A stretch of DNA of 64,000 bases from Tortispora ganteri (GCA_003707115.1 PPNB01000027.1:1-64000), one strand, 5' to 3'. Shown: positions 10,394 through 40,369, counted from the first letter of the stretch. Numbers and translations: made by a program. Notes: generated by a model from the sequence alone, not told the origin.

Positions 10394-11573
10394 TTAGCCA
10401 TAGCGCATCCGGCCGCTGGAATCAACGACGACTTTGCGATACTCTTTACGATCATCTCTAGCTGCTCCATAGCGTAAACCAACCTTACCAGATTTCGCAG
10501 GTACGAACTTAAATATGAACTTGTCACCTTCGTACTTAGAACCAAGTACAACTTTTGTTTTCGCTTTTTTAATACCAGCAGCTACTGCTGTCTCAAAACT
10601 CTTCTGTAGAACATCCGCAGCGGGGTGAAGTCGTAATTCCTTTGCAGCAGCATCCGCAGTGACTATTTCACTCTCTCCGACAACCGTATAGTATGGCTTT
10701 TTAGCACCTATCGGCATCGCAACTTCCGATATGTTCTCCAAAACCGGAATCTGCTCGTCTGTGTACTTCTCGCCAGTCCGGAAATCAGTTGAGGACAGCA
10801 TAGGTTGACGCTCTGAATTCTTACCCTCAAAAATAGGTAAGGCTTTATATAAACGTTGTTCCATTCTTATAGCATCAGGTTCAATCTTGTCCTAAAGCAA
10901 TGATGTTAGTATTCGAGCGTAGGAGAAATTAAGTCGCAACAGGTGTTCAGAATCTTATATTGTAACCACGATTGCGGTCTTATAGACTAATCGAACAAAA
11001 TTGTATAAGTAATATTCATCAAATAGGCACACTAGATATGCGCTCAGCTAGAATTGTTAAAAAGGTACTTACCGCTTGCTGTAGTTGGTCCTCGACATGG
11101 GCCAACCGTATAACCGCAAAAATGCGTTCAGGCTTTACACCCAGTTCTTCACTGACAGTGCGAACAGGTTGCTTCTCTACCAACACACGATGTACTATAT
11201 CTTCCTTTAATGCCGGACTTAAAGCCAATCCTGACATTGTGAACGGGTTCATAGGAAACGGTCGTAGCGATTCCGGATAGGGTCGGGCAATAAACTTCCA
11301 AGGTAGGCCGAACTCTCTGCTTTGTGCAACAAAAAAATTGGGAACATGATTATTGGATAAGCGAGCGTATCTGTTTTTCACATATTCACCCTTCATGTTT
11401 TTAGGGCCCAGCCAGTCTATCATTTGCTGTCTCCACCTTGTGGTCCCTCGAAGTTCCTGCTCGGTGAAAGTGTTTCGCACAGGGTATTGTGGTCGTATAC
11501 GCGTGCGTATGTGTCTTATCGAGACATAACTGCCAACTTGCCGGCTTGTATGTGCGACCGGATGCCTGTTCAT
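10394..11573 (-). CDS. MRPS35: Mitochondrial small-subunit ribosomal protein mS45 (Mrps35/Bot1); exons 11573-11073 and 10891-10394
   Basis: WLGPKN..GEY..N.Y and LRPFPMNP motifs, C-terminal KVGLRYGAARDDRK. Phase-0 intron 11072-10892 (GTAAGT, TACTAAC, TAG) joins the two ORF-track fragments in frame. Confidence 0.9.
10943..11026 (-). ncRNA. Intronic box C/D snoRNA candidate guiding LSU rRNA 2'-O-methylation
   Basis: On the host strand: box C TGATGA (11021-11016), antisense element GTTCGATTAGTCT (10996-10984), degenerate D' AAGA (10981-10978), C' GTGGTTA (10969-10963), box D CTGA (10950-10947). The guide is complementary to the conserved LSU segment AGACUAAUCGAAC. Confidence 0.75.
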
Positions 11574-11783
11574 CTGATATATATCAAAAGATCACGAGAT
11601 CTGATGGAATTCGAGCAGTTTCAACACAGGTGCTTCTCTAGCTCGGTGCAAACTTGGTGATCGGGTTAAAAAGTGTTAGCTAGGGTCTAGGGCACCACAA
11701 CGCCCCTCCTTAGCAACAAGGGACCTAAATCGAGGACACCATTGCTTTACCAACTTTCCCCTTTAAGAGATATCGGCCACGAA

Positions 11784-13097
11784 ATGAGACTCGGCATATT
11801 AACTCTGGCCATTGCTTGCAGAGTTGCAACTGCTACATCTGCTTCCGGATCAAATGTTTTAGCGTTAATAGATCCAGAGTCACATTCGTCGTTCATATCG
11901 AACCTCAAGTCACGTGGATTTGATGTGGACACCGATTCTAAATCCCTTTTTGCTTACGACACCGATCGCATATACGACCATCTGATTCTAGGCCCTTCTT
12001 CTAATATTGATGCGAAACAATTGCTGTCGTTCTTGGAAGATGGTGGAAATATTCTTGCAATTGGTTCAACTGATGGCGTTAAGGGCGAGGTGAGACGGCT
12101 GGCTCATGAACTAGGCATGGCGCTGCCCCCTAGCGGCTCCAAACTGATTGATCACTTTAAAGCGCAGAATAATGATGCTCATGATATATTGGTACTGGAC
12201 GAATCATCAAATACAATACCAGAGCCATATATTCATCAGCCGGGCTCCAAACCGCTTATATACTCTGGTACCGGGTTCTCCCTCCTAAACAACCCCTTGG
12301 TACTACCTATCCTTAAAGCCTTCAGAACATCATACGTATCTTCCGGCCCAGAATCAGCAGCGGCTGTAACTGAACCCTGGATAGCAGGATCGCAGACGTA
12401 CCTGGCAGCTGCATTCCAGGCATACAATAATGCCCGATTTGTGTTTGTGGGCTCAGATTTGTTCTTCTCAAATAAATACTACAACGACGATAAATACGGT
12501 AACAAGCAGTTTGCTGATGACTTGACTAAATGGGTATTCCATGAAACTGGTGTCATTACTGTCGCTGACGTATCACATGGCTTAGCGAATCCTGAAGCAT
12601 TAAAGGCCGTAATTGATGCGAATACCACTACATTGGTCGGTTCCAACGGTCCAATTTATCGAATCAAGGAAGACATTATTTACTCGATTGATTTATCTAT
12701 ATGGAATCCTGAGTCGGCATCTTGGGCTCCTTATCAGGCGAATGACGATGTACAAGTTGAGTTCATCATGTTAGATCCATACTATCGCTTGAACTTGCAA
12801 AATATTGGCAGCACGGAAGATCAGTCTGCCTGCAAATACCAAGTAGAATTTAAAATACCTGACCATCATGGTGTATTCACATTTGCTGTCGATTATAAGC
12901 GACCTGGGTTGGCTTTTATTGAAGACAGAAGGACTGTAACAGTTCGTCATTATGCCCATAATGAATTTACTCGATCTTACGCAATTTCCTCTTCATGGGT
13001 ATACCTATCAGCAATTATATCTATTATAGGAGCATGGATTATATTTGTCATTTCGTGGGTCTATAGTGATTATAACTCTGTCAAAAAGAACCAATAG
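11784..13097 (+). CDS. WBP1: Oligosaccharyltransferase beta subunit (Wbp1/OST48)
   Basis: Signal peptide from ATG 11784, QAYNNARFVFVGS, MLDPYYRLNL, PDHHGVFTF, C-terminal TM and KKNQ ER-retrieval motif. Confidence 0.95.
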   Translation: MRLGILTLAIACRVATATSASGSNVLALIDPESHSSFISNLKSRGFDVDTDSKSLFAYDTDRIYDHLILGPSSNIDAKQLLSFLEDGGNILAIGSTDGVKGEVRRLAHELGMALPPSGSKLIDHFKAQNNDAHDILVLDESSNTIPEPYIHQPGSKPLIYSGTGFSLLNNPLVLPILKAFRTSYVSSGPESAAAVTEPWIAGSQTYLAAAFQAYNNARFVFVGSDLFFSNKYYNDDKYGNKQFADDLTKWVFHETGVITVADVSHGLANPEALKAVIDANTTTLVGSNGPIYRIKEDIIYSIDLSIWNPESASWAPYQANDDVQVEFIMLDPYYRLNLQNIGSTEDQSACKYQVEFKIPDHHGVFTFAVDYKRPGLAFIEDRRTVTVRHYAHNEFTRSYAISSSWVYLSAIISIIGAWIIFVISWVYSDYNSVKKNQ

Positions 13098-25199: not shown

Positions 25200-25281
25200 C
25201 GACGCCAGCAGGACTCGAACCTGCGCTCCCAAAGGGAAAGAGATTTCTAATCTCTCGCCTTAACCGCTCGGCCATAGCGCC
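25200..25281 (-). tRNA. tRNA-Ser(AGA), intronless, long variable arm
   Basis: GGCGCTA/TGGCGTC acceptor stem, D arm GCCGAGCGGTTAAGGC, anticodon arm AGAGA-TTAGAAA-TCTCT, T arm GCAGG-TTCGAGT-CCTGC, discriminator G, downstream oligo-T. Confidence 0.97.
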
Positions 25282-39037: not shown

Positions 39038-40369
39038 TCATCGCGATGCTGGCGGAGTCCACAGTTTCGACGTAGATGAAGGGGTAGGAGTAGTGGATCC
39101 GCTGGAAGGAACGGTACTGAATGCAGCTATTCTTCTTTCAGGTTTGGGTGACTCACAGAACGCACCGTCCATCAGATGCTCAGATGCCAAAGGACGTCCA
39201 GGAAGGCGGATGGGGCTTTCGTTTCTAGAATTAATGCTGATCGGCGCAGTTGCTGCATTGCCGTTTCCGTTTCCGTTGCCATTGCCATTGCCATTGCCGC
39301 CGTAACCGCTGACATTAGCATCAGATTGTCGTCTTATTTGCAGGTTATTCGTTATAGTAGGCAGCAAGTTGGCTTCATCTTCGGCAGTGGGCTCTTTGGA
39401 TATGTTCATCAAAGTAGGAGTGACCAGGGTCTTGTCCTGGGTCGAAGACACGTCAGACGGACGTCTTGGTTGTAAGAACGGATGCTGAATAGCGTCGTCA
39501 ATAGTCATTCTCTTCGATATGTCTACTGTGAGGCAGCGATTGATGAAATCCTGAGCGTGCAGTGATATCTCAGCCCAGTCTTCTTCATCGTAGCCGAATT
39601 CGCCGTTAAGGATAGCCTGCATTTCTTCTGCCGTTGTATCTCTATCGAACGGTGTGTAACCGCAGAGCAGAAAGTAGGCAATTACTCCTATAGCCCACAC
39701 ATCGACGGGTTTTCCATGACCTGTTTTTTGAAAAATCTCCGGTGCCATATATCCGGGTGTACCGCACGTCGTGGTGAGAACGCGGAACCGCTCTTCATCT
39801 ATCACGCGAGAAAGACCAAAATCAGCAATTAAAACCTCAGCGTTTTCATCTGGGGTACGAAACAGTAAATTTTCCGGTTTAAGGTCGCGGTGAACCACAC
39901 CGTGGTGATGCAAGTATTGTACAGCGGACGTAATCGATCGTATTATCTTTGCCGCATCTGATTCGAAATACGCCCCCAGTTTGCATATCCGATCAAACAG
40001 TTCGCCGCCCATTGCTAAATCTGTAATCAAATAAAGATTATTTCTTGTCTCAAAATAGTCAACTAATGTTAAGATGTTTTTGTGGCCTTGTGAGATCCGC
40101 TTCAGCACGGCAATCTCGTTCCTAACTAGATGCTCCCTACCGATCATCAATCTCTTACTAATAATCTTTGCGGCATAGTGGTCATTAGTCTCACAATGAA
40201 TGGCAACTTGTACCGTCGAATACGTGCCTTGACCCAATACTTTGCCCTAAAAGTTCATTTTGGTTAGTAATGTTATCATATTATGATGATCGTGTCTTTA
40301 GCAGTTACTTACCAGCTTGTATGGACATGGTCGCGGCAAAGGGACGGGCGATCTCTGCGAAGTCGGCAT
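39038..40369 (-). CDS. Ca2+/calmodulin-dependent kinase, CmkB / S. pombe Cmk1 type; exons 40369-40313 and 40246-39038
   Basis: Intron 40312-40247 (GTAAGT, TACTAAC, TAG) gives PCPYKLGKVLGQGTY. Also GREHLVRNEIAVLK, HRDLKPEN, LTTTCGTPGYMAPE. Confidence 0.92.

Follow-up and report, generated by a model that had tools for sequence, protein, structure and literature searches.

An intron of 181 nucleotides (nt) interrupts a mitoribosomal protein gene of the yeast Tortispora ganteri, and the question raised by this locus is what the intron carries. The gene encodes an mS45/Bot1p (MRPS35-like) protein and lies on the minus strand of the 64,000-nt stretch of DNA that was analysed as a whole (GCA_003707115.1 PPNB01000027.1:1-64000, called the window here). 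Reading the sequence directly places the intron exactly at 11072..10892, where the initial annotation of this DNA had put it. With a probability of about 0.88, the intron encodes a box C/D small nucleolar RNA (snoRNA) of the CD39/snR83 family, predicted to target the equivalent of A917 in the large-subunit (LSU) ribosomal RNA (rRNA) of Saccharomyces cerevisiae. The initial annotation had proposed an intronic box C/D snoRNA, and the box anatomy, a 13-bp target, published homologues and a family model all agree with it.

The boxes were all read in place. The C, D', C' and D boxes follow each other in this order on the host strand, and the core from C box to D box (11021..10947) is 75 nt long, as had been claimed. 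All these features are on the minus strand, and an intron position i equals 11073 minus the window position. The C box UGAUGA is at 11021..11016 (i52-57), and the D box CUGA is at 10950..10947 (i123-126). The class is defined by RUGAUGA towards the 5' end and CUGA towards the 3' end, and both are present except that U stands in place of R before the C box. The antisense element GUUCGAUUAGUCU (10996..10984, i77-89) is 13 nt long and occupies positions 3-15 upstream of the D' box. It is followed by AU (i90-91), the D' box AAGA (10981..10978, i92-95), whose fifth upstream nucleotide is the U at 10986, and an 8-nt spacer (i96-103). The C' box UGGUUA (10968..10963) is preceded by G, and G plus UGGUUA (i104-110) begins 8 nt after AAGA. 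Between the C' and D boxes lies the segment CAAUAUAAGAUU (10962..10951, i111-122). A candidate flanking pair is formed by GUGU (11032..11029, i41-44) and ACAC (10946..10943, i127-130). If this pair marks the ends, the putative snoRNA would extend over 11032..10943, about 90 nt.

Within the intron, the C box is 51 nt from the 5' splice site and the D box is 41 nt from the branch adenosine; for intronic snoRNAs of Neurospora crassa, the reported distance to the 5' splice site is 41-60 nt (Liu et al. 2009, PMC2780460). The folding energy of the intron alone was no better than that of shuffled sequences (z = 0.02), an uninformative outcome that is usual for RNAs of the C/D class. A 32-nt signature, consisting of the guide core, two free bases, AAGAC, 5-10 free bases and TGGTTA, has a single occurrence in the window and none in 100 shuffles of it. 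The 13-mer GUUCGAUUAGUCU also occurs once in the window, and it is not enriched when two mismatches are allowed.

As the initial annotation stated, the antisense element is fully complementary to a conserved LSU segment, AGACUAAUCGAAC, and all 13/13 pairs are Watson-Crick in eukaryotic ribosomal DNA (rDNA) loci. In a box C/D guide, an antisense stretch of at least 10 nt lies directly upstream of D or D' and its fifth pair marks the target, and the 13 pairs found here have this arrangement. The segment GTTCGATTAGTCT sits within two published eukaryotic 28S rDNA reverse primers, namely primer 28SC (PMC12592996) and a universal 25-mer 28S primer (PMC13664300). The rDNA test set consisted of at least 50 loci of eukaryotic rDNA that stray in prokaryote assemblies, found by a scan with the 28SC primer. 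When five of these loci were checked in Rfam, LSU_rRNA_eukarya was matched in 5/5, 5.8S in 5/5 and the small-subunit (SSU) rRNA in 4/5. The contigs concerned (L104-L153, at least 50) stand in bacterial or archaeal genome records and are contaminants there. Counted from AAGA, the guide pairs with the rDNA loci at positions 3-15 and also at position 1, with an A-A mismatch at position 2. The nucleotide paired at position 5 is the A of GAAAG-A-CUAAUCG. The D' guide has an alternative site in the LSU, which is G-U-rich with 13 pairs of which 9 are Watson-Crick, and this was judged weaker than the 13/13 site.

The numbering of the target was settled with sites from two other fungi. N. crassa Am797, Am856 and Gm888 correspond to S. 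cerevisiae A817, A876 and G908, an offset of -20 (PMC2780460, PMC5824354). Schizosaccharomyces pombe Gm837, Am839, Am849, Um930 and Gm940 (PMC4138321) correspond to G805, A807, A817, U898 and G908, an offset of +32. Because both offsets are constant, N. crassa Am897 and S. pombe Am949 both equal S. cerevisiae A917, which is nine nt 3' of G908. By the D'+5 rule with AAGA as the D' box, the snoRNA in the window is predicted to select this same nucleotide, a prediction supported by the sites of the published homologues, which map to A917. The target given in the initial annotation for this D' box thus stood, and its S. cerevisiae number is correct by the offsets in the tables. Published accounts report no snoRNA or methylation at A917 in S. 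cerevisiae, in line with the initial annotation, and the nearest site is indeed Gm908, a target of snR60, 9 nt upstream.

One locus of the test set, L129:1282-5014 (minus strand), contains a complete eukaryotic LSU of 3494 nt, followed on the same strand, after 120 nt, by a 5S gene. Its target A is nt 949, the number used for S. pombe. A 5S gene directly downstream of the LSU is not the arrangement known from S. pombe, so the agreement was taken as a coincidence and was left unused.

By its guide, boxes and target, the snoRNA in the window is a member of a described fungal family, CD39/snR83, which S. cerevisiae has lost. The novelty implied in the initial annotation must therefore be given up, since the family is already in print (Liu 2009, Diao 2014, Donovan 2016, Canzler 2018), while the feature itself stands. 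N. crassa CD39 is an intronic snoRNA whose D' guide is assigned to 26S-Am897 (13/0) and whose S. pombe homologue is snR83; no homologue is listed for it in S. cerevisiae, Arabidopsis or human (PMC2780460). Its layout is UGAUGA, 12 nt, UUCGAUUAGUCUU, G, AAGA, 8 nt, AUGGUUA, 16 nt and CUGA, and it has a second assigned target, 26S-Am375 (PMC2780460). The window snoRNA is like N. crassa CD39 in the guide core UUCGAUUAGUCU, the D' box AAGA, the C' box RUGGUUA 8 nt after D', the order of the boxes, the intronic location and the predicted A917 target. It differs in having a longer spacer from C box to guide (19 nt before GUUCG versus 12 nt), a duplex that is 1-2 nt farther from D', and AU instead of UG beside D'. 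The segments before box D are also different, and for that of the window no second target was found in the rDNA loci.

The S. pombe homologue snR83 is intronic, lies on chromosome III and is assigned to 25S-Am949 (12/0), with orthologues in S. octosporus and S. cryophilus (PMC4138321). The snR83 sequences of the three Schizosaccharomyces species contain UCGAUUAGUCUUG-AAGAC, with R-UGGUUA 7-9 nt further on (PMC4138321). In that study the sites were mapped by primer extension at low deoxynucleoside triphosphate (dNTP) concentration; Am949 is given as one of the methylation sites identified and is described as absent from humans, plants and budding yeast (PMC4138321). The window snoRNA and snR83 have in common the guide core, the D' box AAGA, the C' box GUGGUUA or AUGGUUA and a single D' guide to the A917 equivalent; snR83 differs in its C box (UGAUGC or UGAUGU) and its short spacer from C box to guide. 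The core UCGAUUAGUCU is common to the guides of the window, N. crassa CD39 and snR83. Likewise, the window layout GUCU-AU-AAGAC-CGCAAUC-GUGGUUA has the family pattern, in which AAGA(C) comes two nt after GUCU and is followed 8-9 nt later by RUGGUUA.

Members of the family are also known from other budding yeasts. In Candida, an intron of orf19.3559 houses CD39, and synteny is preserved across four species (Donovan et al. 2016, PMC5033589); a Candida albicans snoRNA described by Mitrovich et al. in 2010 has a target region in common with Nc_CD_39 (PMC5824354). Compared by description alone, the Candida CD39 of C. albicans, C. parapsilosis, C. orthopsilosis and Lodderomyces elongisporus is like the window snoRNA in being a budding-yeast RNA that is intronic, syntenic and absent from S. 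cerevisiae. The host orf19.3559 stands among ribosomal proteins in a proteomics list and may be the mS45/MRPS35 orthologue. S. cerevisiae snR60 (Gm908, Am817) is a box C/D RNA for the same LSU domain, as are the intron-hosted guides snR39 and snR59 in RPL7A/B, but the guides and targets of all three differ from those of the window snoRNA. When the intron was searched with Rfam 15, no match was found at the gathering threshold or at E values up to 10. None of 20 homologue loci matched at the gathering threshold either; one of them, L088, gave two sub-threshold matches to plant snoRNA families.

To place the window snoRNA among its relatives, metagenome contigs were scanned with the signature. 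At least 103 loci (L001-L103) were obtained, with 93 unique cores, of which 92 had full 45-nt flanks; all homologue counts given here are among the matches listed. Two boxes were not part of the search pattern. A C box TGATG(A/T/C) was found upstream in 89/92 unique loci (exceptions L029, L084 and L089), and CTGA was found downstream, within 45 nt of C', in 92/92. By our own estimate, chance would give about 3% for the C box and about 15% for CTGA. A sequence-only model (R1) was then built from 87 unique homologues with both boxes and enough flank, excluding the window. It gave a single match in the window, at 10947..11025 (minus strand) from C box to D box, with 35.1 bits and an E value of 5.9e-10, a test that is partly circular because the homologues were retrieved by a pattern that the window fits. 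Within the family the AU beside D' is rare (4/93; UU or UG otherwise), and G before UGGUUA is found in 8/93, versus A elsewhere.

Most of the homologues are found in the same host. The 87 unique loci with at least 300 nt of upstream sequence were searched by tblastn with exon 1 of the window gene and a protein, P0001. In the first round, 69/87 had a Bot1-like exon on the same strand that ended 10-132 nt upstream of the guide, and none had one on the opposite strand. A second round with 34 exon peptides gained 13 of the 18 former negatives, including L015, where the exon ends 268 nt upstream. In total, 82/87 unique loci have a same-strand Bot1p exon upstream. Out of 68 distinct exon peptides, L050 was left out for an in-frame stop, and the other 67/67 matched the Pfam profile PF12298 above the cut-off, from profile position 1-5 to about 60-77, mostly 60-67. 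The exon therefore breaks off where exon 1 of the window gene does (profile about 60-67). No Bot1p exon was found upstream in 5/87 loci (L028, L034, L057, L071 and L088).

L057:1501-1531, like L071 and L080, has UGAUGU as its C box and lacks a Bot1p exon on its upstream side; about 90 nt downstream, L057 has an exon that encodes an RRM_1 domain. From these sequences, the snoRNA appears to have a different host in the L057 group. The SPBC prefix of the S. pombe bot1 gene, SPBC14C8.16c, presumably denotes chromosome II. Since snR83 is on chromosome III, it is probably not in the mS45 gene in fission yeast. No paper on a link between this snoRNA and mS45/MRPS35 as host was found in a literature search, although supplements and the Mitrovich papers may hold one. 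The near-constant residence in one mS45 intron is the one element that may be an addition to published knowledge.

Several observations weigh against a working snoRNA in this intron. The spacer between C box and guide, 21 nt when counted to UCGA, is at the upper extreme of the family (mode 12-14; one other locus has 21). Position 2 next to D' is mismatched, and the C box is preceded by U and not by a purine. The GUGU/ACAC pair, which the initial annotation had listed as a flanking stem, is present, but it is only 4 bp long, 7 nt off the C box and 0 nt off the D box, and it is not evidence, because pairing the flanks of different loci as a control gave stems of at least 4 bp in about 39% of cases. 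A short terminal stem that brings the C and D boxes together is usual in the class. Stems of at least 5 bp near the boxes occur in 40/89 homologues, versus 14.1 expected. The retrieval pattern fixed the guide core, D' and C', so that their invariance in the homologue set is not independent evidence. In addition, the RNA, its ends and its methylation in T. ganteri are predictions from the DNA, and the presence of the target in the T. ganteri LSU is assumed from the universality of the segment. These features would fit a decaying, non-functional copy of CD39 with recognisable boxes but without a stable particle or methylation. Such a copy is improbable, because the four boxes fit the family consensus exactly and the 13 Watson-Crick pairs are unbroken. 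The intron has also been kept although the other introns seem short, a point that was partly checked. A further argument comes from a related species, represented by a contig with a different organism label (X3). This contig covers 10400..11600, is about 92% identical over the 1201 nt, with 87 substitutions and 5 single-base indels, and has kept the intron. The 3' 41 nt of the intron have diverged by about 20% in X3 (4 substitutions and 4 single-base gaps; the three gaps at 10903-10907 are probably one 3-nt deletion scattered by the aligner beside the branch site). From C box to D box, the sole indel is a base inserted behind 10996 that lengthens the U-run on the 5' side of the guide and lies outside the guide itself. 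The X3 substitutions were placed up to 10918, with 48 more lying beyond, so that over the boxes and guide the comparison covers indels.

The choice of the D' box decides the target, and the initial annotation had offered U919 with ATAA as an alternative to A917. A working snoRNA with AUAA (or UAAG) as its D' box would methylate U919 (or C918), and AUAA directly abuts the 13-bp duplex without any mismatch. The published homologues, however, have UG or UU at this place and AAGA in all cases, and their targets, once placed with the help of three and five calibration sites, both coincide with the A917 equivalent and fit AAGA alone. AAGA also retains the GA of the CUGA consensus. This alternative is therefore very improbable. 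That the motifs are a chance cluster in an AT-rich intron with no RNA gene is hardly credible. Although a single CTGA, a TGATGA and a 4-bp flanking complement are each common by chance, the signature is missing from every shuffle of the window, the family model matches with the low E value given above, and 82 of the 87 independent loci repeat this arrangement in the corresponding intron of the mS45 gene. The preferred explanation remains an intron-encoded CD39/snR83 snoRNA with AAGA as its D' box.

Box C/D snoRNAs are stable RNAs of about 70-120 nt, and those encoded in introns are made by splicing, debranching and exonuclease trimming. The window snoRNA would accordingly be transcribed within the mS45 pre-mRNA and freed by splicing and debranching. 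Trimming would halt at the particle formed on the C/D and C'/D' boxes by Snu13, Nop56, Nop58 and the methylase Nop1/fibrillarin. The D' guide would pair over 13 bp with the LSU, and the fifth nucleotide upstream of AAGA would lie opposite the A of AG-A-CU. Nop1 would then 2'-O-methylate the A917 equivalent (A949 in S. pombe, A897 in N. crassa), as the D'+5 rule and the published homologues suggest.

The segment before box D, CAAUAUAAGAUU, had been described as lacking a recognised target, and it is indeed without a run of at least 10 pairs in the conserved rRNA of the at least 50 eukaryotic rDNA loci. Matches in L112 and L145 were rejected as targets, being G-U-rich and limited to one locus each. 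This segment varies across the family: GCGAGCCUCU precedes box D in 36/93 unique loci, and smaller groups of homologues have GCAUGGCUUU or AUGCUCUUG there. The shared segments look like conserved second guides in sub-lineages. In T. ganteri the segment is probably not an rRNA guide. It would then be either no working guide at all or a lineage-specific orphan guide, perhaps with a non-rRNA target.

The host gene itself was verified from both exons. Exon 1 (11573..11073, minus strand) is an open frame with a putative ATG at 11573..11571 and matches PF12298 (Bot1p) with an E value of 8.9e-16 over profile positions 1-64. Exon 2 (10891..10394, minus strand) is open over 10891..10397, ends with a stop codon at 10396..10394 and matches PF12298 with an E value of 8.4e-06 over positions 66-147, continuing after exon 1. 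The host is thus a mitoribosomal protein gene, as first annotated. A search for longer homologous proteins with exon 1 gave a single relative, of 344 amino acids, which also has PF12298. We take MRPS35 to be the S. cerevisiae name of mS45. In S. pombe, Bot1 is the mitoribosomal small-subunit protein mS45, encoded by SPBC14C8.16c (PMC8565316). The intron is in phase 0 and splits one reading frame. Direct reading confirmed its length and its canonical sites, which are the 5' splice site GTAAGT (11072..11067), the branch site TACTAAC (10911..10905), 14 nt before the terminal TAG, and the 3' splice site TAG (10894..10892), all on the minus strand.

The initial annotation gave 49-69 nt for the other introns in the window, and this was borne out in part: a strict GTAAGT...ACTAAC...YAG scan returned one other short candidate, of 66 nt. 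This stretch, at 40247..40312 (minus strand) with GTAAGT, ACTAAC and TAG, is the sole other short canonical candidate under the strict pattern and is consistent with the other introns being short. Some further observations concern the sequence around the gene. A 468-codon open frame at 11691..13097 (plus strand) is divergent from the mS45 gene and separated from the start of that gene by about 200 nt. Position 11133 in exon 1 is T in both sequencing runs of the same DNA (X1 and X2) and C in the window, and the X1 and X2 contigs break at 11079..11108 with an adapter-like loose end. Elsewhere in the window, Rfam matches a transfer RNA (tRNA) at 25200..25281 (minus strand; 56.2 bits, 82 nt) with the anticodon loop UUAGAAA. 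An 11-nt insertion between its anticodon stem and T stem suggests a long variable arm, as in class II tRNAs such as Ser.

It could be asked whether the residence in the mS45 intron is more than carriage. The initial annotation had raised a link between mitochondrial and cytosolic ribosome biogenesis. In its full form, the residence, near-universal in the sampled fungi (82 of 87 loci), would be ancient, and selection would keep it to couple mitoribosome output with cytosolic LSU methylation. We regard such functional coupling, rather than simple carriage, as unlikely. If it were true, each round of mS45 transcription would yield one guide for the 60S subunit, and the intron would be more than a passive carrier.

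For T. ganteri, the finding would enrich the annotation by a non-coding gene and, as a prediction, an Am at the A917 equivalent, neither of which can be found by Rfam. It would account for an intron about three times as long as its neighbours and for its retention: in this intron-poor yeast, the long intron has most likely been retained because the snoRNA is carried in it. For the family, which S. cerevisiae lost, it would add a budding-yeast member outside that species. The snoRNA and the mS45 intron seem to have travelled together in most sampled fungi, with another host in at least one lineage and probably also in fission yeast. Although unsurprising to a specialist, the locus may offer a clean case for studying how snoRNA-bearing introns are retained.

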